The translations under genes and the position numbers were made by a program. From IMG/VR virus record IMGVR_UViG_3300035696_000002: DNA of 64,000 bases; one strand, given 5' to 3'. Below the pieces are notes generated by a model. The model had not been told where the DNA came from, made no database searches, and was given only the letters and a program-made list of their open reading frames with translations. Positions 514 through 63,844 of the stretch are shown here, one piece after another (positions within the stretch are counted from its first letter, which is position 1; each line of letters opens with the position of its first letter). Origin of the DNA: a virus (lineage: Duplodnaviria > Heunggongvirae > Uroviricota > Caudoviricetes).

Positions 514-3500
514 ACTCGGTTTGTGGGGCGTCAACTTGGGACGACCCCTGATTCGGAAGGTGAGGCGGGGTAGTGAAAACCCCAAAATAAATCTCATCTT
601 CATGGTACTGCTGGTGGTACTTATCGTACTGAGCTTCGGCTTCTTCCCGTGTATCGAACACGTTGAACCAAACCTCAACGCCCTCATCCATCAACACGAA
701 CCACTTACCGCTTACATTCGTCGGTTTGTGGTGTGTGATCTCGGCCCCAGTCTTAGACGGCACCGGAGTCGATTCAACCGCACTGCCGATCATAGCTTCC
801 ATCTCATCAGGAGGAATCGGCGTGCCGCCAGTATCTTCGATCCACAGATTGACCATGCCCAACAGGCCACGGCAAACAGCGTTCATGTCTTCCATGTCCA
901 CGCCCGGCTCCGGGAAGGCACCAAAAACCGCCTTACCCTTCGCTGAACTGAACTTGAAATATGGCCCAAGGCCCTCAGCTTCGTTTTGGCTGTTCATTCC
1001 CTCGACGAGGTAGTTGATCGCAAGACGCAATTCCTGCTTGGCCCCCTCCGCTGCTCCGGGGAGTACCGTGTCGAGAATCGTATAGGCGTTGAGCAACTGA
1101 CCGAGGACTTCACTCTGGGCAGTCTTCTGCGAAGACGTGTGCCCCTGATCGCTCAGGAACCCATCGGTCTGCTCTTCCTCACTGATGTCAGGAAGTTTTT
1201 GATCCGGGTGATATCCGTAGAAATCCATCCATTCACGGATGTGGGGCTCTTCCCCACGGCCATCACGAATAGCCTCATCAACCATGTCCTGCATGTAGAC
1301 GTTGCCGTCCGTGGTCAGAGGATTTTCAAGGAACACACCGCACTTATCACAGTGCTGCGGGCCGTCTGCGGCACCGCCGCCGTTCGGGTATGGGCCTTTC
1401 GGGTAATCGTCCGAGTCGAACGTGTGCTCATCAGCCGGATTCGCCGGAGGCTGCAACTGCTTCATGGTCTCACGGGCACATTCGTCGCAGACGAGGGCTG
1501 CCTGATAGATGTATGCCTGCTTGCTCGCGACCTTCGCGACTTCTAGTCCGCCCAAACTTGCCATATAGAACCTCTGATTCGGTAACTCCGGTGGGATGTG
1601 CTTCCTCTCTGGCTGCTTCGGAGGCTCGCCAGCCCCGGAGCCACTTTCCGGGTCTTGCTGATTCAGCAAAATGGAAGTCATCGGCCCCTGTTGCTGCTGT
1701 TGCTGGGCATTTTCTTGCGGAACCGCAGCACCGCCAGCGGGGGCACCGACACCAGATTGGGCGGCTTCCTTCGAGGCTGTTGACGACAACTGATTGTTCT
1801 CCACCTGACTGAAATCCTGACTGTACGGATTCACCGGGTCTTGTGCCTGCGTGTCCGACACCTCGCGATCACTTACTTCGTTGCTCGGATTCCGAGGTGC
1901 AACGTAAGGAGCATTCGGCGAATGTGGGCCGGGCTCGGTCAGATCACTGCCTACACGCACACGTCCAGTCGTATCCGAGTGCATTTCGCGACCCGTATCA
2001 CCCGGCATAGTCTGCGGACGAATGGCGTTGTAGAAATCGTGGCCGAGGTCGCCCTCTTTCAACATGCCGCCCTCAACTTCCTTCCTGTACGCATCCCATT
2101 TCTGATCTTCAGGAACGCCCGGCAGATGTTCTCCGCCGTCCTTGCACGGACGCAGGTTGCACGTTACGCATTCAAGGCAACGCGGGCAGTACAGATGCGT
2201 GCGGTTGGCAATCTCCCAGTCCTCTTCTGCATGCTGAGGCTCTTCAGAGACATCGTCCAAGCCTTCCCAATAGCCTTCGGGCCGCTGCAACTTCAGCCGT
2301 TCAGCTTTTTCTTCAGGACTCTCGTCCGCTTTCTTGGGATAAAGCTTCTCCAACGTCTCGTCGAAATTCTTACTGTAGACCGGGCATTCCATCTTGTGGT
2401 GCCCCGTAACAGAACCGCAGCACGGCAATGCCGGGCCAAGGGAAGTAGCCCGCTTGTCCGAGGTCATTTTAACCTGCCGTTGTGGGTTGTCATCCTGATC
2501 TTGCTGTACCTGTTGCTGACCTTGAGGCGTATTGACTTGCTGCGGGCCTTGCTGATCGACTTGCGGAGCTTGCTGATCGGCGGGGACTGCATCAACTTCG
2601 TCAGTGATGGTCATCTGGTTTTGGGTTGGCGTTTGAGATACCGTTTCGCCCTTACCGGAGAGCAGATTCATCGCTGAAATTCCAGTTGTGACCGCAACGG
2701 AGAGCACAAGCTGCTGGGCAGCGAGTTTCCAGAACGCTCTGAAGCGGTCTGTGCCCTGTTGCTGGGCGTAGCTATCCAATGTCGCAAGGGAAGTAACGCC
2801 CTTCTTCTCCAAAATGGATTCAGCTTTCTGAACGAGCGAGGAGCCGTCGCCAAAATATTCCTGCCACTTATTGCCCAGCCACTTGCCAAGCATCAACACA
2901 ACCCACGACCCAAGGAGGGTTGCAAGCTGCGGATCGAATGCGGCTTTCTTCGGGTGCCGTGATTCAAGCTTCTTGCGTACCGCTTCGCGATCTTCTGATT
3001 CCTCACGCACACCATTGACGTATGCGTAGTACACGGTCTTACCGTCACGCATGAGTTCGCCAATTTCTTCTCGGCGATCATCTGCATACGCCTGCTTGTC
3101 CATGGCGAATAGGTGGTTAATCGAGGCAGCGTGCTGGCCTTTCCACAACGGGAAAGCATGTTGCGGACGCTTCAAACGCCCGTCATTCGTGAAATTGAAT
3201 GCGTAGTTACGAATCCACTCGTCGTCCACGATCATCGGAATGACTGGGTGATTGTGCCCTTCCGCTGCGGCGTCAGCCACGAACGGATTGTTGATGTCAC
3301 AATTCGGGCATTCTTTCCATGTCTCAGCCCGGTGCGGGTTGTCCTTTGTCCACCGACGCGGGAAAGCATCCAATACCTGCTCACGCATCTCTGGTGTGAG
3401 TTCATCACCACGAATAAGGCGAGCGGTCTTCGTACTGCCATTCTTCACGCCTGAGTCCATATCCTGATACGCAGAGAGGTAGGCGTCAAGTGAGGCTGTA

Positions 3501-7478: not shown

Positions 7479-10400
7479 TTAGACTCGGCGACCCCAGTGA
7501 TACTCGATGCTGAGGTTTGTACCGCTCTGTGTGCTCAATGCACCACTCGGCCCGGCCCCTTGGAACAACAGGAAGCCGTAGAACGGGTGGGCCTTGAAGA
7601 AGCTCACGCCACTCGCGGGAGCGGGCACAGGTTCCATGCTCCACCAGCCCAACACAGCCCAATACTGGTTCGTGTTGAATGTCTGAGTGAACGGAGAGAC
7701 CGGGCCTGTCGGATACGACGGGGAGAATGCCATAGTCGAGCCGCCGTCGAGCGACAATGACATGGCGTCCACGGACATACCGATGCACTGCGGATCGAAC
7801 GAGCCTGCCGCTGGCGTAGCGACGGGTGCGGTGCTGCTTCCGAGACGAGCATTGTTGATGGTGGTCTGGGAACCGTAATCAAACAGATACACCGGGCCGA
7901 AAGCTGCGGTTGAAAACACAGTGCCGCCGCCTGCGTTGAAAGGCGTGGTGCTGTAGTTGTACCCCTGCTGCACAGTAATGCGGAGGTTCGTGATGCCCAC
8001 CTGACGGGCGAACGTGTAAGCGTAGCCCATGTGTGCACGCCAGAGCGGAGTGATTTGTGTGTAAGAGATGCCGCCGTTGGTGCTCACCTCGAACTTGTAG
8101 CCACGCGACATATTCGCGTTTATGAGGTAGTATGGTGCATCCGAAGACTGACCGCCAACCTGAGAACCGAAGTTCATGAAGCACAGGTCAGAGAAGTTAA
8201 ATGTTGACTGACGTGAGCCGCTGTAGAATTGGAGCATACCCAGAGACGGGGTGTTACCGCCGCTGGCTTGCGTAATGCTCAACTGAATCCAGCGGAAGCT
8301 GCCCGGCGTGCTCGCCGTGAAGGCAACGCCGCGTTTGAAGGCGGAGAATCCCGTTTGCGAGTCGATGGTTGTGAACGGCCCGGACGCACTGGTGTTCGAA
8401 CCTTGCAGCACCCACGTTACAGGTGCCCCGGACACAGTGTTGGACGAGTCGTAGAACAGACGGAAGCTGTATCCGCTGATGAGCGTAGCGGCACCCAGAT
8501 CAATCGTGAGCGAGCCAGTGTTGCCCGCGTTCGACTTCCAGAACCGCTGAGCACTGCCTGCGAATGCCTGCCAGTTTGGGAATCCTGCCTGATCGCCGCT
8601 CGATGTGATGTTCGGGCTGGACGCGGTGTACGGTGTGTACACGTTCGTTGTCGGATCGAAGTTGTTTGCCGTGATGACCATCTGCAACGCAGTTGCATCA
8701 TACGGGTAGTTACCAGTGTCCAGCTTCGGCCACGTGACCTGTGTGTTCCACCCGGTAAGAGGCGTTGTCAACGGTGCAGTCTGTGGCGTCGGGTTGATCG
8801 AAGTTGGAGCCGTAAATGCCACGTTGGACTGATCGGTATCCACGAAGTAGAGCCCAACTGCATTTTGCTCTGCCACAGTGCGGGCGTCAGTCTGGAGGAA
8901 CGTCTGTCCAGCAAACATTGACCACGCGAAACGTGACTTACGGGCGAACTTCGTGTTGCCCCAGCACAGATTGAATGTGAAGAATTCGCTGTTGCCGATG
9001 CTGATGTCGTTTGCCGTTCCAGTGTCGGCAGCCGGGCCGTAACCGCCGTTGTAGTACGCAACGGTCGCGGTGAACTGATTAGTTGAAGCCGAGGCCAGAG
9101 TAACCGTCAACCCATTCAAGAAGGTCGCCGTCGTGAGACCGGACAGGGTGACCTTGTCTCCGGGGTTGAAGTTGTTCGTCGTGGTCAACACGGTAAGGGT
9201 GTTGCCAGAGATCGAAACGTTCGTGATCGTCGCCTTGCTACCCTGACTCGTCCAAGTATCACTGCTATTCGGGCCGAACTGTACCTGCAACCCGTAAGGC
9301 AGCGGGACGTTTGTGTTTGCGGACGGGATGGAGATCGGGTTGTTGAAAGCATCGGCGAAATTGTCCGCCATCTTCCACATGACCTCTGCGGTACCGCTGT
9401 TCGCTGTAGGCCCGTAGTTCGGGTAAGTGAGCTTCGCTGCGAACTGTGCACCGCTCAGACCAGCCGAAAGGACGGTCACGGTCATGCCATTCAGGAACGT
9501 GGCATTCGAGACGCCAGAGAATGTCACATGATCGCCCGCACTGAATGTGTTGGTCGCCTGTACGGTGAGGACGTTCCCAGCAATCTGGATGCTGGTGATC
9601 GACGCGGAGTTACCCACCCATTTGTGGTAGGTCGGCAACCATGCAAAACTCTGAGCACACAGACCGTACAGCGAGTTCCCATTTGGCAGATTTTGCGGTG
9701 GGCTCGTGAGGCCGCTGGTGATGCGGATAAAGTGCATGTAGTTGTCCAGCGTCATAACTGGATACGTCCAGTTCTGAGCGGCGTCGTTGCCGATGAAGCG
9801 GCTGCCGAGATCGCCTTCAGTCCAGCAATCCTTACCAAACGAATTGATGGTGACTCCTGCCATGCTGTTGAGATGCATCAACTGAAGTGTGTTCGGGGCT
9901 CCCCACGTGTACCCCGGTGCCGCCTGATAAAGCGGGGAGTCGCCGAACAGCGTGTACGTTTTGTGGACGTAGAACATGGTACGATCAGCGTTTGTCGCAA
10001 AGTCTTTTGCATGCGTGATCGACACTGGCTCATACGCCGGGTTCGAACTGTTGGTAACGAACGTGTCGCTGCCAGTCCAACCGCTGCCGCCGCCGTAGCT
10101 CCAGAGCGTGGAGGCCGGAACTGGTGTCAAGTTGGCATTGGACGTACCAAGGGTCGTTCCGCTGATGTCCAGAACCCACAAGTTGCCAGCCGTCCAGTTG
10201 CCTTGGATGAGCAGCTTGTTCGTTGCCACATCATGCATGAAAGCGTTGGGCATGTAGAACCAGAAATCCTTGAGGTTGTTGAAGCCCGTCTGTCCAGTGT
10301 TGGTGCCGTACTGGATACCCTGCGTCAAAGTGCCGCTCTGGCTAACTGGGCCATAGGTCGAGTTGTACGAAGGAATCGTCGCCGTGATCTGTGATGTTGA

Positions 10401-41742: not shown

Positions 41743-43179
41743 TTATGCGTAAACCTCAAGTGGTATCTCGGCCAATGCACGGATTTCCGGGAACGTCTGG
41801 AGCCTCAACATTTCCCCGTTCAGGAAAATGGGCTCAAGAATATCGAACGGATATCCTGTTCTGCCGTCTCCCTTGTACTGCATCGTGTGGTAGCCGCCAT
41901 TCTGGTCATCCAGAAGAGCCAGCCGTCCACGCTTCGATGCCTTACCGGGGTCGGTGATCGGGTCTTTCCAGATTTCAACCTGCTCACCGTTGACCACAGC
42001 GTTGCAGCACTTGATCGCAACCTTCTGCGTATCACGGTTCAACTTCTGGAGCAAGCCGCCGCCCATGCCGAATACGATGTTGGCTGCTGACCACTTCGCA
42101 TCCTTCATCGCCTGCAAGATTCTGCGGACGCCGGAATGGTCGATGCCATCGCCCCACAGAACGCCGACGCAGGGTGGAAGCATCTTGTAGCCCTTCTCGT
42201 TCTCGGTGACGCCAAACTTCTCACCGAGGATGTCCAACACGCGGAGCGTGATCGCTACCGGATCGCCGGAGTCAGGCCGGACTACGACCTTTCCCTTGCG
42301 ATTGCGGATGCGTTCACGATACGTGCCGCCGATGATGTTGGCGGTGAAGTTGAAGATGTCGTAGGAGTCGCCGACAAGGGACAGGATGCCCGTAGGTACT
42401 TCGTCCAGAGCGTGCTCCACAAACTTCGCTTCGTACTCACGCTTCCACATGGTGGTTACGGAGTGCTCAGAGGCGAAGACCGAATAGCCGGGCATTTCTC
42501 CCGGTTTGCTTCCGAAGCCATAGAACTGTTCGATGTAGTCAATTCCGGGCAGCGTATCCGTGCCGAAGAAATTGACAAGATGAGCCGAGGCTCCAATGCC
42601 CATCACCAGATCGCAGGGAACGCCGCGACCGCCGAAATCGTGAAGCTGGTAGGGCAGCGTCGAATAATCGTCCGCCGTATCACGAAGGAACTCAGCGATG
42701 ATTTCCTTGGTGTAGCGGGACTTGGTCGCGACGCCGGAGCCGTACCACGTGTGCTCCAGAATAGTTTCAGACCAACCCGGAATCCAAGAACATTGTTCGC
42801 AGGAGTTCTTCATCGTCCACATGACGTTTTTCACGGGGATCGGAAGGCCCTCTTTCACCCCACGAATATCCAGCGGCAGATAGCCGCCGTGCTTGTTGAT
42901 GACGTGACGCCAGCCTTCTTTGTTGAAGGCACGGTCGGTGCCGAAGTGGAGGCCAGCCTTGTACTCCGCTTCCTCGACATCCGTCAGCGTGGCGAATCTG
43001 CCTTCAAAATTTCGCAGCAAGTTTCCTTGCAGGTCGTAGAGCATGGAATAGTCGTATTCCCCGCCACGGGCCTCGTAGTAGTACAGCATTTCTGTGGTGC
43101 CCGGAACGATAAACCGCCAGTGGCCGACCTTGTAGCTGTCGGTCTTATGTAGTGGGCGTGCTATGAATGGCCTCGGCAT
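41743..43179 (-). CDS. nadV: nicotinamide phosphoribosyltransferase
   Basis: TDSYKVGH, LHDFGGRG, SAHLVNFFGTDT, ASEHS, VGDSYD, VVRPDSGDP, WGDGI, FGMGGGLLQ. Confidence 0.95.
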   Translation of the reverse strand: MPRPFIARPLHKTDSYKVGHWRFIVPGTTEMLYYYEARGGEYDYSMLYDLQGNLLRNFEGRFATLTDVEEAEYKAGLHFGTDRAFNKEGWRHVINKHGGYLPLDIRGVKEGLPIPVKNVMWTMKNSCEQCSWIPGWSETILEHTWYGSGVATKSRYTKEIIAEFLRDTADDYSTLPYQLHDFGGRGVPCDLVMGIGASAHLVNFFGTDTLPGIDYIEQFYGFGSKPGEMPGYSVFASEHSVTTMWKREYEAKFVEHALDEVPTGILSLVGDSYDIFNFTANIIGGTYRERIRNRKGKVVVRPDSGDPVAITLRVLDILGEKFGVTENEKGYKMLPPCVGVLWGDGIDHSGVRRILQAMKDAKWSAANIVFGMGGGLLQKLNRDTQKVAIKCCNAVVNGEQVEIWKDPITDPGKASKRGRLALLDDQNGGYHTMQYKGDGRTGYPFDILEPIFLNGEMLRLQTFPEIRALAEIPLEVYA

Positions 43180-45666: not shown

Positions 45667-47589
45667 CTAGACTTTTATCCCGATCTCTTTCAGGAAGCGG
45701 CTGGGGGCAAGATCGGCAGTATTCGGCCCCCGTTGTTCCTGTTCGGGAAAACATAAGACTAACACATCGCGTGCTCGCGTGCAAGCCACATAAAATAAAC
45801 GTCTTTCCTCCTCGATCTCCTCTTCCGATCCCATGGAGAACATGTGCGGAAGGGAGCCTTCGATAAGGTTAGCCACGTAGACCCGCCGCCACTCCAGCCC
45901 TTTGGCGGCATGGATGGTGGAAATGACCACGGCCCCCTGTTCATCATCGTCCTTAGGCCGCTCCAACGTTAGCTGAAAGACCAAGTCTTCGAGGGTCAGC
46001 GTGGGCCGCTCGGTAAACAGATTGTCCACGAGGGCGGCGAAACGTACAAGGTTGTCGAGCTTCGATTGGATTTTTGATTTCTCCCGTTTGTACTTGTCGT
46101 GGATGTACGACTTGTAGTTGGTCAGGAGAATCACTTTTTCCAACGCCGTGACCGGGTCAGTCTTAAACTGATCGACGTGTTCGACAATTCTGACGAGGTT
46201 GGCAAGCTTCGGTTCATTCTGGGAGGCCGCAATAAGATCGCCTTCTGTAGCCTTCTCCGCCGCCTGCCGCAGCTTTTCAAGCGATGCCGGGCCGACGCCG
46301 CACTTGGGGGCCGCAACTGCACGGCTCATAGCCTGAAAATCCTTACGGTTTGCTACAAGGCGTAAGTAGGCAAGCACGTCCCTAACTTCTTCCGTTTGCA
46401 GCAAACCGCGTCCGCCGCGAACAATATACGGAATTCTGCGGCGAACAAGTTCACCTTCCACTCCCGGTATTTGTCGGTTGCTGCGAACCAAAATGCAGTT
46501 GTCACGAAACAGGATGGGGTTTCGTTTGTGACCCGCGTCTCGGGCGATTTCAGCCGCGATAGTAAATGCAACGTCATTGGCTTGCCAGCCCCGCATAAAC
46601 TGAGTCTCGCCCGTCTCTCCGTTAATGCCCCGCCAGCTTTCCATTTTCAACGGAATGGTGTGCGTCATGCGATACTGAATCGCATTCGCGATATCCACGA
46701 TTTTCTGTCCGCTGCGATGGTTGCGGGCAATCCGGTAGAGCTTCGGTACAACCCCCTTGTAGCCTTCGCTGTACTGTCGGAGCAAGTCTGGCACGGCTCC
46801 ATTGAATCCATAGATCGACTGGCTCATGTCGCCGACGATGTACAGATTCAGGTTGCCGGGCGGAAGGAGGGAAGTGACGAATTCCCACTGAACCGGGTTG
46901 GTATCCTGAGCCTCATCCATGAGAACGTGATCGTACTGGGTCTGAATCTCAGCCAACCACTCTGCGTCTTCCCGGAGACGGCGGACAACTAAGTGAAGCA
47001 TGTCGTCGAAATCTACGACTGAGTTCTTTTGCTTCTCGATTTCAAACTGCTCCCACAAACTGCGTTCAACTGGCGTCAAGGCGTGATAGCCGGAGTGAAT
47101 GTTCTTGGCACGATCATGCACTTCATCCGTGTACTCGGAGCGGAAGCCGATTCCGCGTGCCCGATGGAAACTGATCTTCTTGATGACGATCTTCGCCTTG
47201 ATTTCTTCATCGGTCTTCAAACGGTCGATGAGCGTTTTCATCATCTGCCGCTGGTCATAGTCGTCCAGCGGGGTGACCTTCTTAGCTAAGCCAAAACCTT
47301 CTGGGTCGCGGCGAATCTGTAGGAGGGCAAGGGAGTGGATGGTGGAGACGCGGGGCAGTAGCTCGTCCGGCGTGTCCTCAGTGAGGCCGAGGCGGTCGAT
47401 GAGTTCCCCGGCAGCCTTGTTCGTGAATGTGATGGCACAGATACGTGGCGGCTTGATACCCTGTTTGATGATCCAACGAACACGTTCTGTAAGGACGCGG
47501 GTCTTACCGGAGCCAGCACCAGCGATCAAGCAGGCGGGCTCATCCAGCGGGTGCTGGACTGCAAGCATTTGTTCTTCGTTTAGCTGCAT
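45667..47589 (-). CDS. uvrD: UvrD/PcrA-family SF1 DNA helicase
   Basis: AGAGSGKT, ITFTNKAA, MDEAQDTN, VGDMSQSIYGF, NHRS, STIHAAKGLEW, EERRLFYVACTRA. Confidence 0.95.
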   Translation of the reverse strand: MQLNEEQMLAVQHPLDEPACLIAGAGSGKTRVLTERVRWIIKQGIKPPRICAITFTNKAAGELIDRLGLTEDTPDELLPRVSTIHSLALLQIRRDPEGFGLAKKVTPLDDYDQRQMMKTLIDRLKTDEEIKAKIVIKKISFHRARGIGFRSEYTDEVHDRAKNIHSGYHALTPVERSLWEQFEIEKQKNSVVDFDDMLHLVVRRLREDAEWLAEIQTQYDHVLMDEAQDTNPVQWEFVTSLLPPGNLNLYIVGDMSQSIYGFNGAVPDLLRQYSEGYKGVVPKLYRIARNHRSGQKIVDIANAIQYRMTHTIPLKMESWRGINGETGETQFMRGWQANDVAFTIAAEIARDAGHKRNPILFRDNCILVRSNRQIPGVEGELVRRRIPYIVRGGRGLLQTEEVRDVLAYLRLVANRKDFQAMSRAVAAPKCGVGPASLEKLRQAAEKATEGDLIAASQNEPKLANLVRIVEHVDQFKTDPVTALEKVILLTNYKSYIHDKYKREKSKIQSKLDNLVRFAALVDNLFTERPTLTLEDLVFQLTLERPKDDDEQGAVVISTIHAAKGLEWRRVYVANLIEGSLPHMFSMGSEEEIEEERRLFYVACTRARDVLVLCFPEQEQRGPNTADLAPSRFLKEIGIKV

Positions 47590-57999: not shown

Positions 58000-58776
58000 A
58001 TGGCTGACTCGCTGCACAACCCCATCAAGGACAGGTCAAGACTGATGACAGACAGATCACAATACAAATTAGGGAAAAAGGATTTCAAGTTCGATTCCCG
58101 AACGCTGAAACTGAGGGACTATCTTGTTCCAACGTTGCCAGCACCACCTGCGTCGATCAACTGGGCACCAAACGTGACCTCTTGGCCGATGCTCATGAAT
58201 GACACGCTCGGCGACTGCACGATTGCTGCCGCCCTGCATGCGGTTCAAGTGTGGATGCTCAGCCAAGGCAAGACGTACACGCCCACTGATGCGATTGCTC
58301 TTGAGTACTACGAGAAATGGGACGGCTATGTCAATGGCGACCCCAACACCGATAACGGCGGAGATGAAACCACCGTTCTCACGAGGTGGAAGGCACACAA
58401 CCTCAACACCCACGTGTTGAGAGGCTGGGTCGATCCGCAGCCGGGCAACCAGACGCACATCATGCAGTCCATCGCCTACTTCGGCGGCGTGTATATTGGG
58501 CTTCAACTCCCGGTGTCGGCACAGAATCAAACCGAGTGGACTGTGGTTGCAAACGACGGCGGCGTGTGGGGCGGGCATGCAGTTTACTGCTATGCCTACA
58601 ACTCCACTGGGCCGATCTGTGCCACGTGGAACGAAGTGATGCAGATGACTTGGGGCTTCTGGGACAAGTACTGCGACGAAGCACACTGCTTGCTTGGTGC
58701 GGCTTGGGCTCCGGGAGTCAAGGACGTAATCAAGTACAGCCAGTTCGAGGCCGATCTGGCATTGGTCAGCGGCTAA
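58000..58776 (+). CDS. papain-like (C1-type) cysteine peptidase
   Basis: NDTLGDCTIAA (Cys), WGGHAV (His), ATW. Confidence 0.65.
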   Translation: MADSLHNPIKDRSRLMTDRSQYKLGKKDFKFDSRTLKLRDYLVPTLPAPPASINWAPNVTSWPMLMNDTLGDCTIAAALHAVQVWMLSQGKTYTPTDAIALEYYEKWDGYVNGDPNTDNGGDETTVLTRWKAHNLNTHVLRGWVDPQPGNQTHIMQSIAYFGGVYIGLQLPVSAQNQTEWTVVANDGGVWGGHAVYCYAYNSTGPICATWNEVMQMTWGFWDKYCDEAHCLLGAAWAPGVKDVIKYSQFEADLALVSG

Positions 58777-58791
58777 GCGAACCTGAAATAC

Positions 58792-58822
58792 AAAAGGGCA
58801 GCCTCAACGGGCTGCCCTTTTT
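58792..58822. terminator. bidirectional intrinsic terminator
   Basis: AAAAGGGCAGCC-TCAACG-GGCTGCCCTTTTT between convergent genes. Confidence 0.85.
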
Positions 58823-58834
58823 AGTTTGGGAACT

Positions 58835-59257
58835 TTACTCAAGGCCGAGGGCTTTCTTCTCAACTGCAACGCGATTCAAGGCACGCTGGAGATCGCCGCA
58901 CGCGGCTTGGTAGCCATGGTTCGGTTGGAATCCATTCAACCACCAATTCATCGCCCGGCCCCAGAGCTTGCCTTCACAAGACGCACGCCATGCGTGTGCG
59001 GACATGGTCTCGTCATTCTGCCCGTTCATAAAAGTCACGTTCAGGAAAATGTCGAACGCATCGAGCCAGCGATGGATGCGACTCTCATGGTTGGACTTCT
59101 CCATTGCGATGGCGATGTTCGCTGGGTTCATGGGCATGCTGTTGCTCGTGCCCAAAAGGTGGTGGATGCCACGGAAGATCAGACTGACAACGACGAGTGC
59201 AGAAGCGGCGGCGAGATAGATTTCCCCGCCGAGAAGGAGTTTGTGTAAGAAGGTCAT
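58835..59257 (-). CDS. phage membrane protein
   Basis: Start reassigned to ATG 59257, abutting a late motif; N-terminal TM; D..LN...G..DETMS motif. Confidence 0.6.
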   Translation of the reverse strand: MTFLHKLLLGGEIYLAAASALVVVSLIFRGIHHLLGTSNSMPMNPANIAIAMEKSNHESRIHRWLDAFDIFLNVTFMNGQNDETMSAHAWRASCEGKLWGRAMNWWLNGFQPNHGYQAACGDLQRALNRVAVEKKALGLE

Positions 59258-59282
59258 ACTAAGGGGTGGGAAAGTGCAGAAT

Positions 59283-59356
59283 TGGCTGCCCCCCAAGGAT
59301 TCGAACCTCGCTTTCCTGATTCAGAGTCAGGCGTCCTACCGCTAGACGACAGGGCA
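59283..59356 (-). tRNA. tRNA-Gln(CTG)
   Basis: Cloverleaf, loop CT-CTG-AA, TTCGAAT, encoded CCA. Confidence 0.9.
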
Positions 59357-59361
59357 AAATT

Positions 59362-59435
59362 TGGCTGGGTCGGAGCGATTCGAACGCCCATAGACTGATT
59401 CAAAGTCAGCCGTCCTGCCGTTAGACGACAACCCA
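59362..59435 (-). tRNA. tRNA-Gln(TTG)
   Basis: Cloverleaf, loop CT-TTG-AA, encoded CCA. Confidence 0.9.
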
Positions 59436-59439
59436 AAAA

Positions 59440-59516
59440 TGGCACCGGGTGATGGGTACGATCCACCATCATACGGGTCAAAGCCGTAGGCCTTCTTCCG
59501 TTTAGGCGAACCCGGT
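59440..59516 (-). tRNA. atypical tRNA-Gln(TTG)
   Basis: Loop CT-TTG-AC; T-loop ATCGTAC; A1-U72; CCA. Confidence 0.75.
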
Positions 59517-59521
59517 AAGTT

Positions 59522-59607
59522 TGGAGCCGATGGAGGGATTCGAACCCCCGTGGGATTTCTCCGGCAGTTTACAAAACTGCTGCAATCGACCACTATGCGA
59601 CATCGGC
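59522..59607 (-). tRNA. tRNA-Thr(TGT) with a long variable arm
   Basis: GCAGT-TTTGTAA-ACTGC; C2-G71 and U73 as in the neighbouring Thr tRNAs; GGA-GAAA-TCC variable arm. Confidence 0.75.
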
Positions 59608-59611
59608 AAAT

Positions 59612-59884
59612 CTAAGCTCTTCGTGCGAACCCGGTCACGACCACGGGTTTTGCTTTCGGTTCTGGCGGATTGTCGATCACCCACGCCAGATGGGCTGCAA
59701 ATAATTTTTCGTATTCGGCCTTGAGGGCATTTCCCTCGTCGATCATCGCCTGATCGTTGGCTTTGATGCCAGCGGCCAATTTTCGGAGGAAGCTACGCCG
59801 TGCTTCCAGTACCTTGGAATTCTGATACAGCAAGTCAACCTGCTCGTCAGACAAAGGCAATTGCCGGGTTCTCCCTAGCAGCAC
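59612..59884 (-). CDS. hypothetical protein within the tRNA array
   Basis: Overlaps the upstream ORF; ends just before tRNA-Thr. Confidence 0.5.
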   Translation of the reverse strand: MLLGRTRQLPLSDEQVDLLYQNSKVLEARRSFLRKLAAGIKANDQAMIDEGNALKAEYEKLFAAHLAWVIDNPPEPKAKPVVVTGFARRA

Positions 59885-60189
59885 ACCCCGTTCATCGCCG
59901 GGCCTGAGTTATCGTAGCCGCAGCGATCATCCCAACAGGCCTTGCACCTTGCGGAGCCGGGGCCGGGTTGAGTGGGTGTCCCACAATCAATGCAAACGGA
60001 AGTCTGCAATCGCGGGACGTAACATCCGGGACACGGAACACTCTCGTACCACTCGATCATTTCCTTCACCCACTGCTCTTTCGTCTTGCCCAACTTCGCG
60101 AACAACTCGGGCTTGTAGCGTGGATGATCGAAACTGGTAATCACCTGCACGTGCCCGCAACGATGCTTCACTTCCATCTTCTCGTTCAT
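59875..60189 (-). CDS. Zn-finger hypothetical protein
   Basis: HRCGH, CPGC, CIDC, CKAC; ATGA coupling. Confidence 0.6.
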   Translation of the reverse strand: MNEKMEVKHRCGHVQVITSFDHPRYKPELFAKLGKTKEQWVKEMIEWYESVPCPGCYVPRLQTSVCIDCGTPTQPGPGSARCKACWDDRCGYDNSGPAMNGVCC

Positions 60190-60380
60190 GACAACCTTTC
60201 AATAGCCGTTAGGATGTTCTGTTCCTGCTCCACCAAAGCCGCCGCCCAGCCCTTCAAATTCTGCTTTGCTCGGGCACCTGCGAGTGTGTTGCGTGTCATC
60301 TGCAACTCGCTCTGGTAGTGTCTCAACAATACGACCCGCACTTCCGGGTCACTCAGATCATAATACTCGTATGCTTTCAT
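60186..60380 (-). CDS. small hypothetical protein
   Basis: ATG 4 nt after the tRNA CCA; coupled to the next ORF. Confidence 0.5.
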   Translation of the reverse strand: MKAYEYYDLSDPEVRVVLLRHYQSELQMTRNTLAGARAKQNLKGWAAALVEQEQNILTAIERLS

Positions 60381-60384
60381 AAAC

Positions 60385-60459
60385 TGGAGCTACGGGTGGG
60401 AATCGAACCCACAGCCTCTCCCTTACCAAGGGAGTACACCGCCGTTGTGTTACCGTAGC
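60385..60459 (-). tRNA. tRNA-Thr(GGT)
   Basis: CTCCC-TTGGTAA-GGGAG; TTCGATT; CCA. Confidence 0.9.
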
Positions 60460-60463
60460 AAAC

Positions 60464-60539
60464 TGGAGCCGAAGAGGGGACTCGAACCCCTGACCTACCG
60501 CTTACGAGGCGGTTGCTCTACCAACTGAGCTACTTCGGC
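60464..60539 (-). tRNA. tRNA-Thr(CGT)
   Basis: ACCGC-CTCGTAA-GCGGT; canonical D and T arms; CCA. Confidence 0.95.
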
Positions 60540-60710
60540 GAAATCTTCCGGGTCAACATAAAAATAATCGCGACCCAATGTGTGAACGGCCTCTGCCAGT
60601 TCACGATACTCCGGCGTCCATGTGCTGGCGGGCATCTGCTTGGTGAGGCTCTTCAAATGAGCCCACGCCATGCAAGAATCTTCGTACCGCTTTCGCCAGT
60701 CACTCGCCAT
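60495..60710 (-). CDS. hypothetical protein whose 3' end overlaps tRNA-Thr(CGT)
   Basis: 71-aa ORF filling the inter-tRNA gap. Confidence 0.45.
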   Translation of the reverse strand: MASDWRKRYEDSCMAWAHLKSLTKQMPASTWTPEYRELAEAVHTLGRDYFYVDPEDFAEVAQLVEQPPRKR

Positions 60711-60715
60711 CGTCT

Positions 60716-60764
60716 GTACCCATAAAGGGGCTTATTGTGCCCTAAACGACCCCTGTATGGGTAC
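60716..60764. repeat. 15-bp inverted repeat (hairpin) in the tRNA array
   Basis: GTACCCATAAAGGGG ... CCCCTGTATGGGTAC. Confidence 0.7.
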
Positions 60765-60782
60765 GATATGACACATTGATCT

Positions 60783-60856
60783 TGGTACACCCGCATGGAT
60801 TCGAACCACGATCTCACGCTAATCAGGCGTGGGCCTTGCCGTTAGACGACGGGTGC
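60783..60856 (-). tRNA. tRNA-Ile(GAT), atypical U37
   Basis: CACGC-CTGATTA-GCGTG; TTCGAAT; ACCA. Confidence 0.8.
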
Positions 60857-60862
60857 ATATTT

Positions 60863-61045
60863 ACGTGTGGTGCAGCCGTTGGGCTGTGAAGCTACTCGCC
60901 GCACCGCACGGGTGTCGCTTTTGTTATCTGGCTCAGCTTACTTGTACGTCATCCGGCCCTTTCGGTCGCTCACGCTCCTACTCGGTACCCCGGACTTCAC
61001 TTTCAACAGTCCAGCGTGTGCAGTTGCTTACCAAGCTGTCTGCAT
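60863..61045 (-). ncRNA. unknown structured RNA between the two Ile tRNAs
   Basis: Several helices, a GAAA-capped hairpin, 3' long hairpin containing GCACCA. Confidence 0.45.
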
Positions 61046-61048
61046 ACT

Positions 61049-61125
61049 TGGTTGGCGGGGCGAGATTTGAACTCGCGACCACACGATTATCGGTCGTGGG
61101 CTCTACCGGGCTGAGCTACCCGCCA
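61049..61125 (-). tRNA. tRNA-Ile(GAT), atypical C33
   Basis: CACGA-CCGATAA-TCGTG; TTCAAAT; ACCA. Confidence 0.85.
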
Positions 61126-61396
61126 AAACCTGCTCAAAAATTCTGCGGCATTCGCAGCCGGGAACGTTGTGTTCGTTCTCCCCAAAACAATCGGGGCTCG
61201 GCTGATCTTGCCTCACTTCAATCTTCACTTCCGGCAACGGCTTCGAATCCAGTATCTCCAGAAACTCTTCCAGATGCCTGACGACTTTCTTGTAGGCCCC
61301 CTTCAAGTGGCCGACATGGCCGAAGCCGTCGCCTTCAAGAGCCTTTCCATCCGCCCGGAGGCGGACGATAATGTCTGCGATCTCATTCCTGTCCAT
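61103..61396 (-). CDS. hypothetical protein whose 3' end overlaps tRNA-Ile
   Basis: ATG 61396 (MDRNEIADII...) overlaps the stop of the upstream small ORF. Confidence 0.5.
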   Translation of the reverse strand: MDRNEIADIIVRLRADGKALEGDGFGHVGHLKGAYKKVVRHLEEFLEILDSKPLPEVKIEVRQDQPSPDCFGENEHNVPGCECRRIFEQVLAGSSAR

Positions 61397-61517
61397 CGTC
61401 ATCATACGAGTCGCCACAATCGAGGCAGTAATGATGCCCCGGCTGATCCTCGTCCTCCACGTAGTTGTGGCCGTTGAACTCGCAAGCCGACCATTCAGAG
61501 TAATCTTCGTCTGCCAT
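61383..61517 (-). CDS. 44-aa acidic Zn-binding peptide, first gene after the attenuator
   Basis: Hand translation MADEDYSEWSACEFNGHNYVEDEDQPGHHYCLDCGDSYDDDGQE; GGGGG RBS. Confidence 0.55.
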   Translation of the reverse strand: MADEDYSEWSACEFNGHNYVEDEDQPGHHYCLDCGDSYDDDGQE

Positions 61518-61529
61518 AATTTCCCCCGG

Positions 61530-61559
61530 AAACACAAAAGCCGCCCGTTTGGGCGGCTC
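61530..61559 (-). terminator. attenuator terminator
   Basis: AGCCGCCC-AAAC-GGGCGGCT followed by TTTGTGTTT. Confidence 0.85.
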
Positions 61560-61625
61560 GGAAGTCTCTGATTTCTCTTGGGTTACGTTACGATAACCCC
61601 ATCAGACACACCCGAACCACCGCCC
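61551..61625 (-). promoter_or_regulatory. antiterminator helix
   Basis: GGGC(GGT)GGTTCGGG..TCTGAT (61625-61601) pairs with ATCAGA..TCCGAGCCGCCC (61572-61551), sequestering the terminator 5' arm. Confidence 0.75.
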
Positions 61626-61678
61626 GTAATTGTAATACGTTGCGTCGTGGTAGTTCGCGTTGTCTGTGTCTGCTTCAT
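61583..61678 (-). CDS. Thr/Gln/Ile-rich attenuator leader peptide (31 aa)
   Basis: MKQTQTTRTTTTQRITITGGGSGVSDGVIVT, between a sigma70 promoter and a terminator. Confidence 0.8.
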   Translation of the reverse strand: MKQTQTTRTTTTQRITITGGGSGVSDGVIVT

Positions 61679-61688
61679 GATCTCAATA

Positions 61689-61717
61689 AGTATGCACGTA
61701 GACGAGAAACTTGTCAA
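61689..61717 (-). promoter_or_regulatory. sigma70-type promoter of the leader/tRNA operon
   Basis: TTGACA-17 nt-CATACT. Confidence 0.8.
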
Positions 61718-61726
61718 CGGCTATTT

Positions 61727-61918
61727 TCAGTCGAAACCGATTGTAACTTTCTGCGATTTCGTGTTGCCCACCTCGAATGTGTCGAGGCATAGATACGGCT
61801 CAGCATCGAATTGTTCGACCGGGTTCAAATCGGTCAACTGATCCCAGCCCCGCACGACGATCTTCACGTCAGGCGGGTACGCCTTCAGTTCTTCGATGAA
61901 CTGAGCGACCGTCTTCAT
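61727..61918 (-). CDS. small phage hypothetical protein
   Basis: MKTVAQFIEELKAYPPDVKIVV is a common phage N-terminus; TAATG coupling. Confidence 0.65.
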   Translation of the reverse strand: MKTVAQFIEELKAYPPDVKIVVRGWDQLTDLNPVEQFDAEPYLCLDTFEVGNTKSQKVTIGFD

Positions 61919-62892
61919 TAGTTGAAGTACTCGTCCGCTGAAGCGGGCTTTTCGTCTTCGTCTTCAGACAGGAGGACGCCTTCAACGGCCTTCGTCACCT
62001 TCGGTTCCGGCGACGGCGGCGTGAAGTCGATGTCGTTCATGTCCGTGTTGTCGTCCACTCGGAACATCTCTGAGATCGAGTTGTCATCAGCCTCATCAGT
62101 GATGCCAAGCTCGACCGGGTCGATATCTTCCTGAAGACCACACACCACCTTGAGCGTGTCTTCGAGGTCTGCAAGCTGAATGTCGAAATCTTTCTTCGCG
62201 ACGGCCACTTCAGAAATCGCCGTCACAACCGACTTCAGTTGCTCTTCGACTTTGACCGAAAGTTCCGTCAAACGCTTCGCCGTCATCGCAGTGAAATCTG
62301 CAATCGTCTTGCGGATCGCGATCTTGAGATCAACTCGACGCTGACGTTCGATGGCCTCGCCCTTTTCCTGAGCTTCGGTTTTGATCGGCGTCATTTCGAC
62401 AACAACATCGCCGAGTTCACCGGGCGAACACTTGATCTTGTTTTTCTTGTCCACCTTGGCGACCTTGGGCTCCGTAGGAATATCCACGATGACTTCCTTT
62501 TGGACTTGAGCGTAGGCTCTTTTCATGCCGCCCTGTGTGTTCCAGTTCGGACGCACCGGGAAACGTGCCTCGCCCTCGGTGTGGACTTCGAGTCCGTTGA
62601 TTTCGCGTGTCAGGCTTTGCAGAGCGGCGTCGGCCTCCGCAATGTTGTTGCGGATGGCGGAAGTGTCACGTCTTTCGGGAACGAAATTCGCCGTAACGTC
62701 ACTGGAGGCTTCGCGGTACACTCGCGTCTTTGCCGCAGCCTTTTTCTTGCCCTTACTGATCTTTGCGACGGAAACAACATCAGCATGATCGCCGGAGACA
62801 TGCACACCCGACTGGGACTGTAGATGCGATACCGTCTTTTTCTTCTTGCTCAGTGATTCTGAAACTCTGCGTCGCCGCCAATTTGTAGCCAT
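61918..62892 (-). CDS. hypothetical coiled-coil protein with a basic N-terminus and acidic C-terminus
   Basis: GAGGG RBS; 324 aa. Confidence 0.7.
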   Translation of the reverse strand: MATNWRRRRVSESLSKKKKTVSHLQSQSGVHVSGDHADVVSVAKISKGKKKAAAKTRVYREASSDVTANFVPERRDTSAIRNNIAEADAALQSLTREINGLEVHTEGEARFPVRPNWNTQGGMKRAYAQVQKEVIVDIPTEPKVAKVDKKNKIKCSPGELGDVVVEMTPIKTEAQEKGEAIERQRRVDLKIAIRKTIADFTAMTAKRLTELSVKVEEQLKSVVTAISEVAVAKKDFDIQLADLEDTLKVVCGLQEDIDPVELGITDEADDNSISEMFRVDDNTDMNDIDFTPPSPEPKVTKAVEGVLLSEDEDEKPASADEYFN

Positions 62893-62998
62893 AGGAATCC
62901 CTCTCGGAGTAATACTGGATATTGCGAAGATTTCCCAATATTGAGGGTAAATAAAAGTGAATCAAATACTTACGGACGGAAGAAGTGGGAGATTGAAA

Positions 62999-63072
62999 TG
63001 GCCCCCCGGACAGGATTCAAACCCGCATCGTCGATTTTAGAGACCGCCGCTCTGCCATTGAGCTACCGGGAG
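62999..63072 (-). tRNA. amber suppressor tRNA (CTA), G73
   Basis: GCGGT-CTCTAAA-ATCGA; T-loop TTTGAAT; CCA. Confidence 0.75.
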
Positions 63073-63074
63073 AT

Positions 63075-63154
63075 TGGTGCCGAGGCAACACAGCTTGATC
63101 GCGGAACGAGTGCACCGAAGTGCAAGCCTTGATAACTTGTGTGCTGCCTCGACA
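63075..63154 (-). ncRNA. CCA-ended long-stem RNA without an anticodon or T arm
   Basis: 14-bp terminal stem plus ACCA; internal TGCAC-TTCG-GTGCA hairpin. Confidence 0.6.
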
Positions 63155-63229
63155 TGGAACTCGCGACGGGATTGGAACCCGCAACCCCTCGGTTTAGAAT
63201 CGAGTGCTCTGCCATTGAGCTACGCGAGC
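63155..63229 (-). tRNA. amber suppressor tRNA (CTA), U73
   Basis: CTCGA-TTCTAAA-CCGAG; T-loop TTCCAAT; CCA. Confidence 0.75.
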
Positions 63230-63240
63230 AAAACTAAACT

Positions 63241-63317
63241 TGGTGCACCCAGTGGGATTTGAACCCACGATCCACGTTTTAGAGACATGAGCTTTGATCG
63301 GGCTAAGCTACGGGTGC
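63241..63317 (-). tRNA. amber suppressor tRNA (CTA), A73
   Basis: CATGT-CTCTAAA-ACGTG; TTCAAAT; CCA. Confidence 0.8.
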
Positions 63318-63344
63318 ATGTCACTACTATAGTACTCGAAAATC

Positions 63345-63395
63345 TGGTGGGCGGTGAAGACTTTCATCCCCGGTGGTTTCCCACTTTTACCGCCC
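63345..63395 (-). ncRNA. 51-nt mini-tRNA-like RNA, copy 1
   Basis: GGGCGGT-AAAA-GTGG(GAAA)CCAC-C-GGGGAT(GAAA)GTCTTC-ACCGCCC-ACCA. Confidence 0.75.
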
Positions 63396-63396
63396 G

Positions 63397-63445
63397 TGTG
63401 CCCTCAAGAGCATCTTAACCAACTTAACGTGCTCTTGAGAGCATA
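63397..63445. repeat. ~14-bp hairpin spacer
   Basis: TGCCCTCAAGAGCA ... TGCTCTTGAGAGCA. Confidence 0.65.
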
Positions 63446-63448
63446 TCT

Positions 63449-63524
63449 TGGCTCCGGGGGAAGGAATTGAACCTCCATCCCCGAGGCTTTCGCCCCGGTG
63501 CTCTTGCAGTTGAGCTACCCCGGA
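63449..63524 (-). ncRNA. tRNA-like RNA with the anticodon loop replaced by a GAAA tetraloop
   Basis: Acceptor TCCGGGG/CCCCGGA-GCCA; D and T arms present; CCGGGGC-GAAA-GCCTCGG. Confidence 0.75.
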
Positions 63525-63527
63525 ATA

Positions 63528-63601
63528 TGGAGCCCGTTGAAGGAGTTGAACCCCCGACCTCTCCGTTAAAAACGGAGTGCTCTGCACTGAGCTAAACGGG
63601 C
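63528..63601 (-). tRNA. tRNA with a Lys(TTT) anticodon on a Thr-like acceptor
   Basis: CTCCG-TTTTTAA-CGGAG; GCC../..GGC-TCCA; D-loop lacks GG. Confidence 0.7.
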
Positions 63602-63612
63602 ACTTACAAACT

Positions 63613-63756
63613 TGGTGGACGCCTGAGGATTCGAACCTCCGGCTTTCACAGATTACTCACGCGGTACTCGTCGCGACGTTTCCCGTGCTTTCAATCAGCC
63701 TTACCCGGCTCTGTGAAATGCTGTCCGCTTGAAGCGGGCCATAACAGCGTGCGTCC
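63613..63756 (-). ncRNA. 144-nt expanded tRNA-like RNA
   Basis: Acceptor GGACGC/GCGTCC-ACCA; T arm GGAGG-TTCGAAT-CCTC; enlarged D arm; 9-bp stem opening to a ~57-nt branched domain. Confidence 0.7.
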
Positions 63757-63793
63757 GTTATAAAAGACATTCGTCTTTTATTTCATACAAACT

Positions 63794-63843
63794 TGGTGGG
63801 CGGTGATGCCTTCCGGCACCCAGCTTTCGCTGCTTTACCGCCC
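63794..63843 (-). ncRNA. 50-nt mini-tRNA-like RNA, copy 2
   Basis: GGGCGGT-AAAG-CAGC(GAAA)GCTG-GGTGCC(GGAA)GGCATC-ACCGCCC-ACCA. Confidence 0.75.
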
Positions 63844-63844
63844 G

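Follow-up and report, generated by a model that had tools for sequence, protein, structure and literature searches.

Leader-peptide attenuators of the thrL, trpL, hisL, leuL and pheL type have a short open reading frame (ORF) close to the promoter. In the thrL type the transcript can form three competing pairings, the protector (1:2), the antiterminator (2:3) and the terminator (3:4), and stalling of the ribosome within a run of regulatory codons should give read-through into genes for amino acid biosynthesis. The pheM leader is a related case, an attenuator placed before pheST (phenylalanyl-tRNA synthetase) that senses decoding of the cognate codon. Control of tRNA genes is ascribed to growth-rate and stringent mechanisms, and the tRNA arrays of phages are usually discussed only as constitutive supplements that adjust codon usage or counter host defence. 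Here we examine a cassette in a 64,000-nt stretch of DNA (the window) from an uncultured tailed phage, IMG/VR record IMGVR_UViG_3300035696_000002. The cassette has the anatomy of a thrL-type attenuator and stands before an operon of Ile, Thr and Gln tRNA genes. From its sequence we consider it likely to be a ribosome-mediated (leader-peptide) transcription attenuator that controls the tRNA operon, and so forms a feedback loop on tRNA supply. The phage would then probably make these tRNAs only while ribosomes decode Thr, Gln and Ile codons slowly.

All elements of the cassette are on the minus strand, and positions are those of the window unless another locus is named. The cassette had originally been predicted from the DNA letters alone, as a promoter, a leader ORF and a terminator, and each of these has been found again. 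A promoter scan returned the sigma70-like promoter at 61717-61689, with a −35 hexamer TTGACA (61712-61717) and a −10 hexamer CATACT (61689-61694) separated by a 17-nt spacer and a match to 10 of the 12 consensus positions. The ATG of the leader lies at 61678, with 10 nt between it and the −10 hexamer. The leader ORF (61678-61583) has 31 codons followed by TAA at 61585-61583, and its start ATGAAGCAGAC is invariant among the orthologues of three relatives; the alignment of orthologous cassettes comprises four sequences and is too shallow for covariation statistics. Codons 3-18 (61672-61625) form the regulatory run, in which 14 of 16 codons are Thr, Gln or Ile. Recounting gave nine Thr codons that include all four of ACA, ACG, ACT and ACC, three Gln codons (CAG twice, CAA once), two Ile codons (both ATT) and two Arg codons. 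When stop-free windows of 16 codons were taken in six frames from the whole genome, just one of 598,255 reached 14 or more codons that the Ile, Thr and Gln tRNA set can read, and that one is the present leader.

The leader run is matched by the genes that follow. ARAGORN and Rfam agree on eight tRNA genes between 61125 and 59283, and on the anticodons originally assigned to them. They are tRNA-Ile(gat) at 61049-61125 and 60783-60856, tRNA-Thr(cgt) at 60464-60539, tRNA-Thr(ggt) at 60385-60459, tRNA-Thr(tgt) at 59522-59607, tRNA-Gln(ttg) at 59440-59516 and 59362-59435, and tRNA-Gln(ctg) at 59283-59356. The genes past the terminator are these eight and small ORFs, not the biosynthesis or synthetase genes by which a leader-peptide attenuator is normally recognized.

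The folding of the leader RNA is that expected for attenuation. In the free RNA the minimum free energy and centroid folds contain a protector hairpin. Its 5' strand (segment 1, 61649-61666) lies within the regulatory codons and is paired with the Gly-codon stretch at 61623-61603. That stretch forms part of a G-rich segment 2 (61601-61625), which can take either segment 1 or segment 3 as its partner. Segment 3 (61551-61572) provides the 3' strand of the antiterminator and includes the 5' arm of the terminator. A hairpin of 7 bp across the leader stop codon (61580-61599) falls within the antiterminator loop. The intrinsic terminator (61528-61559), found by a terminator scan and in the folds, has a 9-bp stem at 61559-61538 in which seven pairs are G-C, a 4-nt loop and a T-rich tail, with ΔG = −16.6 kcal/mol. 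The free leader RNA is more stable than its shuffled counterparts (z = −4.08) and leaves the terminator intact with a probability of 0.98.

The effect of a translating ribosome was modelled by placing a 29-nt footprint at each codon in turn and folding the RNA 3' of the footprint, cut before the 3' arm of the terminator. Truncated transcripts were chosen because equilibrium folds that included the complete terminator gave only partial dips in its probability. With the A site at codons 1 to 15 the antiterminator has a free energy of −37 to −42 kcal/mol, against −16.6 kcal/mol for the terminator, and seven or eight of the eight bases of the terminator 5' arm are paired within it. This pairing declines across codons 16-18, and from codon 19 onward, just past the run, none is left. 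The pairing of 61625-61601 with 61572-61551 had been proposed from complementarity, and with the 5' part of the leader masked it is the fold of lowest energy. Antiterminator and terminator share the 5' arm and are mutually exclusive, as had been claimed. Comparison of folds with and without the ribosome mask, suggested in the original prediction as a check, gave the antiterminator for the masked leader and the terminator for the free RNA. With the anatomy of the cassette, these folds bear out its assignment to the thrL/trpL type.

The folding properties suggest how the switch would operate. Transcription would begin at the sigma70-like promoter, and a ribosome would start on the 31-codon leader almost immediately. 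If charged tRNA-Thr, -Gln or -Ile were scarce, whether of host or phage origin, the ribosome would linger in codons 3-18 and segment 2 would be left free to pair with segment 3. This would sequester the 5' arm of the terminator, and RNA polymerase would read through into a pair of small ORFs and the tRNA genes for Ile, Thr and Gln. With fast decoding, a ribosome past the run would cover segment 2, so that the terminator forms and transcription stops near 61530. An untranslated leader should give the same outcome, by pairing of segment 1 with segment 2. The products are tRNAs that read the test codons, and the circuit would therefore be a negative feedback loop on decoding capacity; slow decoding would lead to read-through and more of the matching tRNAs, and the faster decoding that follows would restore termination. 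The sequence elements are observed and the alternative folds are computed from them; we infer that the leader is translated, that termination occurs in vivo and that read-through responds to tRNA supply.

The original prediction treated the cassette as a single case, and in this respect it has to be revised. The source genome is a single contig of 463,033 bp with 55% G+C, carrying 68 tRNA genes and one tmRNA gene, with the tRNAs clustered by amino acid. The genome was scanned for all terminators that have a short ORF immediately before them and tRNAs after them. A promoter, leader and terminator head four more tRNA clusters, and at a sixth cluster there is a leader followed by no U-tract terminator. 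The cassette has paralogues at most of the tRNA clusters of this phage and forms one family with them. The cassette at L056:223-350 precedes Ser(gct, gga, tga, cga) and Leu(taa), and has a leader with eight Ser codons of all six kinds together with TTA. That at L057:243-396 has a leader with the two Lys and two His codons, all four CGN codons and codons for Asn, Gln and Trp; it stands before tRNAs for Trp, His (two), Arg (four, reading CGN), Asn, Gln, Cys and Lys. At L058:157-333 a cassette precedes tRNAs for Val, Gly, Ala, Asp, Cys and Glu, and in its leader there are all four Ala codons, all four Val codons and three Gly codons, plus Cys, Glu and Asp. The cassette at L059:246-368 precedes Tyr (two), Leu(gag, tag, cag, caa) and Phe tRNAs, and its leader has Tyr codons and five of the Leu codons, TTA being the exception. 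Finally, L060:242-313 has a leader rich in Met, Pro and Phe codons before four Pro, one Gln, three Met and two Phe tRNAs; this is the one that lacks a U-tract terminator. The terminators of the present cassette and the other four have eight or nine G+C-rich pairs followed by a run of T.

The fraction of codons in each leader that can be decoded by its own cluster ranges from 0.33 to 0.57. In a matrix of decodable codons the true assignment of leaders to clusters is the best of all 720 permutations. The leaders also contain 50 distinct synonymous codons; the expectation from the codon usage of the phage is 42.8 ± 2.3 (P ~0.002). This excess suggests that the leaders sample isoacceptors. In all five canonical cassettes of the genome the predicted switch point coincides with the last regulatory codon. 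The phage genome is, as read from these elements, split into at least five modules, each with its own codon-matched leader. The cassettes share further sequence. The promoter of the present cassette has a spacer and −10 context resembling those of the other tRNA leaders and of the tmRNA gene, and an identical 17-mer precedes the terminator in two of the cassettes. An IMG/VR contig with an exact match to this 17-mer was rejected as a chance match in a coding region without tRNAs.

Several observations on the other cassettes are recorded here. The Tyr/Leu leader (L059:246-323; genome 340945-341022) interleaves five Ser codons, and the Ser tRNAs lie 278 kb away behind a leader of their own. These Ser codons may reflect cross-talk, or may be a relic of the splitting of a cluster, since Tyr, Leu and Ser tRNAs share one cluster and one mixed leader in two relatives described below (G006 and Tunturi 5). 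No tRNA-Ile(tat) was found in the Ser/Leu(taa) cluster, which leaves the ATA codon in the Ser leader without a matching tRNA in that cluster. When introns were allowed ARAGORN proposed an intron-bearing tRNA just 3' of Leu(taa), which had no Rfam tRNA match and was discarded. Cassettes of the Pro/Met/Phe type (L060:242-345; L039, ATG at 8433, minus strand; L053, ATG at 7915, minus strand) have a hairpin with the conserved loop motif GCTGCTAGGC and no U-tract, and in the present genome the hairpin adjoins the predicted start of the first tRNA-Pro. An RNase P RNA of bacterial class A lies at L058:1812-2132 (genome 305811-306131, plus strand) within the Val/Gly/Ala tRNA array and matches Rfam RF00010 with 208 bits (E = 1.6e-66), so that this phage seems to supply an RNase P ribozyme of its own. 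The tmRNA gene (genome 242851-243222, minus strand) is about 3 kb past the end of the window; its promoter shares the spacer and −10 context of the cassettes, but it has no leader ORF.

Relatives were gathered by alignment of the baseplate J-like protein, which gave 22 IMG/VR loci and one metagenome contig; in the relatives that carry cassettes the protein is 45-58% identical. Protein searches with a neighbouring 324-amino-acid protein against viral contigs and with an 861-amino-acid protein against metagenome contigs yielded no relatives, and in blastn against cultured phages the tRNAs were the sole matches. Five of the IMG/VR relatives (G005, G006, G007, G008 and G001) have orthologous cassettes together with cassettes in which the tRNAs are partitioned differently; G005 is a complete genome of 332 kb, and G006 is 300 kb with terminal repeats. 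The true assignment of leaders to clusters is again the best in the relatives, out of 24 permutations in three cases and out of six in a fourth. Nine terminator-bearing cassettes of these uncultured relatives have their predicted switch point at the end of the regulatory run. Where the tRNA content of a cluster differs, the leader differs with it. A G006 cluster with Gln, three Thr and Cys tRNAs and no tRNA-Ile has a leader (L048, ATG at 3021, minus strand) with a Cys codon and no Ile codon. In G001 the cluster has gained a tRNA-Cys, and the leader (L012:4556-4482, minus strand) carries a Cys codon within the sensing window. A fused G006 cluster of Tyr, five Leu, four Ser and Ile(tat) tRNAs has a leader (L046, from 1939) in which Leu, Ser and Tyr codons are found together with ATA and TTA. 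No leader was found before the GNN cluster of G006, nor within 330 nt of the Ile/Thr cluster of G007.

One relative is in culture. The baseplate J-like protein is 47% identical over 80% of its length to that of Tunturiibacter phage Tunturi_5 (PP885688.1; 308,711 bp), whose host Tunturiibacter psychrotolerans (Acidobacteriota) comes from Finnish tundra soil. A leader and terminator stand before each of its three tRNA clusters (L062:857-1007, 8872-9079 and 21274-21473), the third leader being annotated as the hypothetical protein gp308. The fractions of codons decodable by their own clusters are 0.45, 0.49 and 0.69, none of the other five permutations of leaders and clusters scores as high as the true one, and the folds change from antiterminator to terminator at the end of each of the three runs. 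The clusters of Tunturi 5 are partitioned unlike those of the present phage, and the leaders differ accordingly; the leader of a fused Tyr/Leu/Ser cluster mixes Leu, Ser and Tyr codons, and also Cys. The search for further leaders matched in codon content to their tRNAs, which the original prediction had proposed, was positive in the genome itself, in five uncultured relatives and in this cultured phage. The recurrence and conservation of the cassettes and the covariation of leaders with tRNA content are direct observations. Full-text literature searches returned no account of leader-peptide attenuation of tRNA genes, in phages or otherwise, in agreement with the initial statement that none was known for a phage. 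The paper on Tunturi 5 reports 43 tRNA genes, and its text contains neither 'attenuat' nor 'leader' (PMC11924767).

A number of features weigh against attenuation of the tRNA operon by a ribosome. The 5' untranslated region is very short, and a Shine-Dalgarno-like GAGA is weak. The Arg codons within the run, and about half of the leader codons outside it, are unreadable by the tRNAs of the cluster. A weak promoter-like sigma70 site (9 of 12 positions) is found at 61395-61368, downstream of the terminator; the promoter scan returned no strong internal promoter of the cassette type in 59283-61530. The leader of G008 has a Cys codon and no tRNA-Cys is seen in its cluster, and this codon is one position beyond the loss of the antiterminator, just outside the sensing window. 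At equilibrium the full terminator mostly wins, its probability reaching a minimum of only 0.31-0.45 at codons 8-9, so the switch has to act kinetically, like that of a classical attenuator. In a control, ordinary terminators of the genome also often paired their 5' arm upstream once the 3' arm was removed. Pairing of the terminator arm was abandoned as a specific measure on this account, and the cassettes are set apart from controls with similar pairing by stability alone (−34 to −42 kcal/mol against −14 to −30 kcal/mol). Such pairing would also be seen if the leader were an ordinary gene for a small peptide followed by a constitutive terminator or insulator, with the tRNAs transcribed by leaky read-through or from other promoters. 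The codon bias would then come from shared ancestry and from constraints on RNA structure, since an A/C-rich segment 1 complementary to a G-rich segment 2 would by itself favor ACN and CAN codons. Yet structure alone does not explain why leaders rich in Ser, in Leu, in Pro/Met/Phe, in GNN codons or in Lys/His/Arg/Asn/Trp stand before matching tRNAs. The surplus of distinct synonymous codons, the tracking of tRNA repartitioning by leader composition in G006, G001 and Tunturi 5, and the uniqueness in the genome of the window with 14 of 16 codons are likewise left without explanation, and we regard this account as very improbable.

The absence of a U-tract from the Pro-type cassettes and from two cassettes of G006 is a further difficulty, and these may use another output. 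It raises the possibility that translation of the leader operates a switch other than intrinsic termination, such as Rho-dependent termination, an effect on how the RNA is processed or how stable it is, or exposure of the first tRNA to RNase P, or that the response is in the opposite direction. The Pro-type cassettes of G000 (the present genome), G005, G007 and G008 and the Trp/His cassette of G006 do have codon-matched leaders and competing hairpins, and both the position of the hairpin against the first tRNA-Pro and the RNase P RNA in the tRNA array would fit such an output. However, the present cassette and four others of the genome have textbook terminators, and the geometry of the folds predicts read-through on stalling. 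For the family as described here we therefore think an output of this kind unlikely, if somewhat less so than the small-peptide gene. A third explanation dispenses with the ribosome: the leader RNA might sense tRNA directly in the manner of a T-box, which would look alike in its outcome as antitermination set by tRNA status, or act as a small RNA or decoy, the attenuated transcript of about 150 nt being expected to be stable and rich in hairpins. Searches for T-boxes and for the Rfam leader families (Thr, His, Leu, Trp and Phe leaders) gave no match at E ≤ 1 in 58000-64000, and none at E ≤ 0.1 at the other five cassettes. Moreover the many different in-frame codons between a conserved ATG and a stop fit a ribosome, not a single specifier codon. 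We judge this the least probable of the three. A leader-peptide attenuator remains the reading that we favor.

Further features of the operon and its surroundings are as follows. Between the terminator and the first tRNA there is an ORF of 44 codons (61383-61517), and one of 97 codons (61103-61396) that overlaps its end and extends into the tRNA-Ile gene. Three ORFs of 64, 104 and 90 codons lie between tRNA genes at 59612-60380. All are on the minus strand and, by family search, belong to no known family. The 192-nt spacer between the two tRNA-Ile genes has no unusual structure (z = −0.86). The tRNA-Thr(tgt) gene is unusually long at 86 nt; it has an insertion relative to the Rfam tRNA model, positions 1-71 of which are matched over 83 nt. 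Upstream of the cassette there are more tRNAs on the same strand (62999-63919), three with anticodon CTA, one Lys and two unassigned, and the cassette thus heads one module of a larger tRNA region. The three CTA tRNAs (62999-63317, minus strand) are of amber-suppressor type, labeled Pyl by ARAGORN, and are clustered with Lys(ttt). The anticodon loops of the two remaining tRNA-like genes (63449-63524 and 63845-63919) were unreadable by ARAGORN. The 740 nt that precede this CTA/Lys cluster yielded no leader cassette. The genetic code of the phage looks standard, since TAG terminates 21% of long ORFs. Elsewhere in the window are a homologue of nicotinamide/nicotinate phosphoribosyltransferase (41743-43179, minus strand) and a UvrD-type helicase (45667-47589, minus strand) that is syntenic with relatives and 52% identical in G001; a nicotinamide phosphoribosyl transferase is encoded by Tunturi 5 as well. 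By kinship with Tunturi 5 the host may be an acidobacterium, which is a weak inference.

The cassettes could serve as a device for host range and counter-defence. Through its sampling of nearly all synonymous codons, each leader would report how much decoding capacity individual isoacceptors have, and switch on only the matching replacement module when the host pool fails, through a mismatch of codon usage with a new host, host shut-off or the anticodon nucleases of defence systems. Where the U-tract is missing, this switch may instead control how the first tRNA is matured. We offer this role tentatively, and hold it to be a good deal less certain than the attenuator itself. If attenuation is correct, tRNA genes would be under a new regulatory logic, a closed-loop sensor that responds to the speed of decoding of a set of codons by making the matching tRNAs. 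Such a sensor would account for the grouping by amino acid of the tRNA arrays of giant phages, and would provide compact, modular and codon-specific sensors for synthetic biology. The growth of Tunturi 5, with the same cassettes, on T. psychrotolerans makes the idea directly testable.

How then does this cassette compare with the systems outlined at the outset? With the thrL class it shares the promoter-proximal short ORF, a run of Thr and Ile codons with Gly codons behind it, as in thrL, and the three pairings with their expected response to stalling. The leader peptide may also resemble that of E. coli thrL. The phage leader differs in sensing Gln as well, in its location in a phage, and in having no detectable homology of sequence or structure. 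As no Rfam leader family matches, what the cassette has in common with E. coli thrL lies in function and has, so far as one can judge, arisen by convergence. The genes regulated are those of tRNAs rather than of biosynthesis enzymes, so that the output feeds directly on decoding. T-boxes similarly let tRNA status choose between terminator and antiterminator upstream of translation-related genes, but they bind uncharged tRNA directly through a specifier codon and require no ribosome, and the Rfam searches of the window and the other cassettes gave no T-box match. The leader of ilvGMEDA (Ile, Leu, Val) also samples the codons of several amino acids in one ORF. In the phage leaders, however, the sensed set is the set of tRNAs downstream, and nearly every synonymous codon is sampled, which points to sensing of isoacceptors rather than of amino acids. 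The pheM leader of pheST is likewise a leader-peptide attenuator ahead of a gene of the translation apparatus. There the product is a synthetase protein and a single amino acid is sensed, whereas the phage cassettes are directed at the tRNAs themselves, in several modules.

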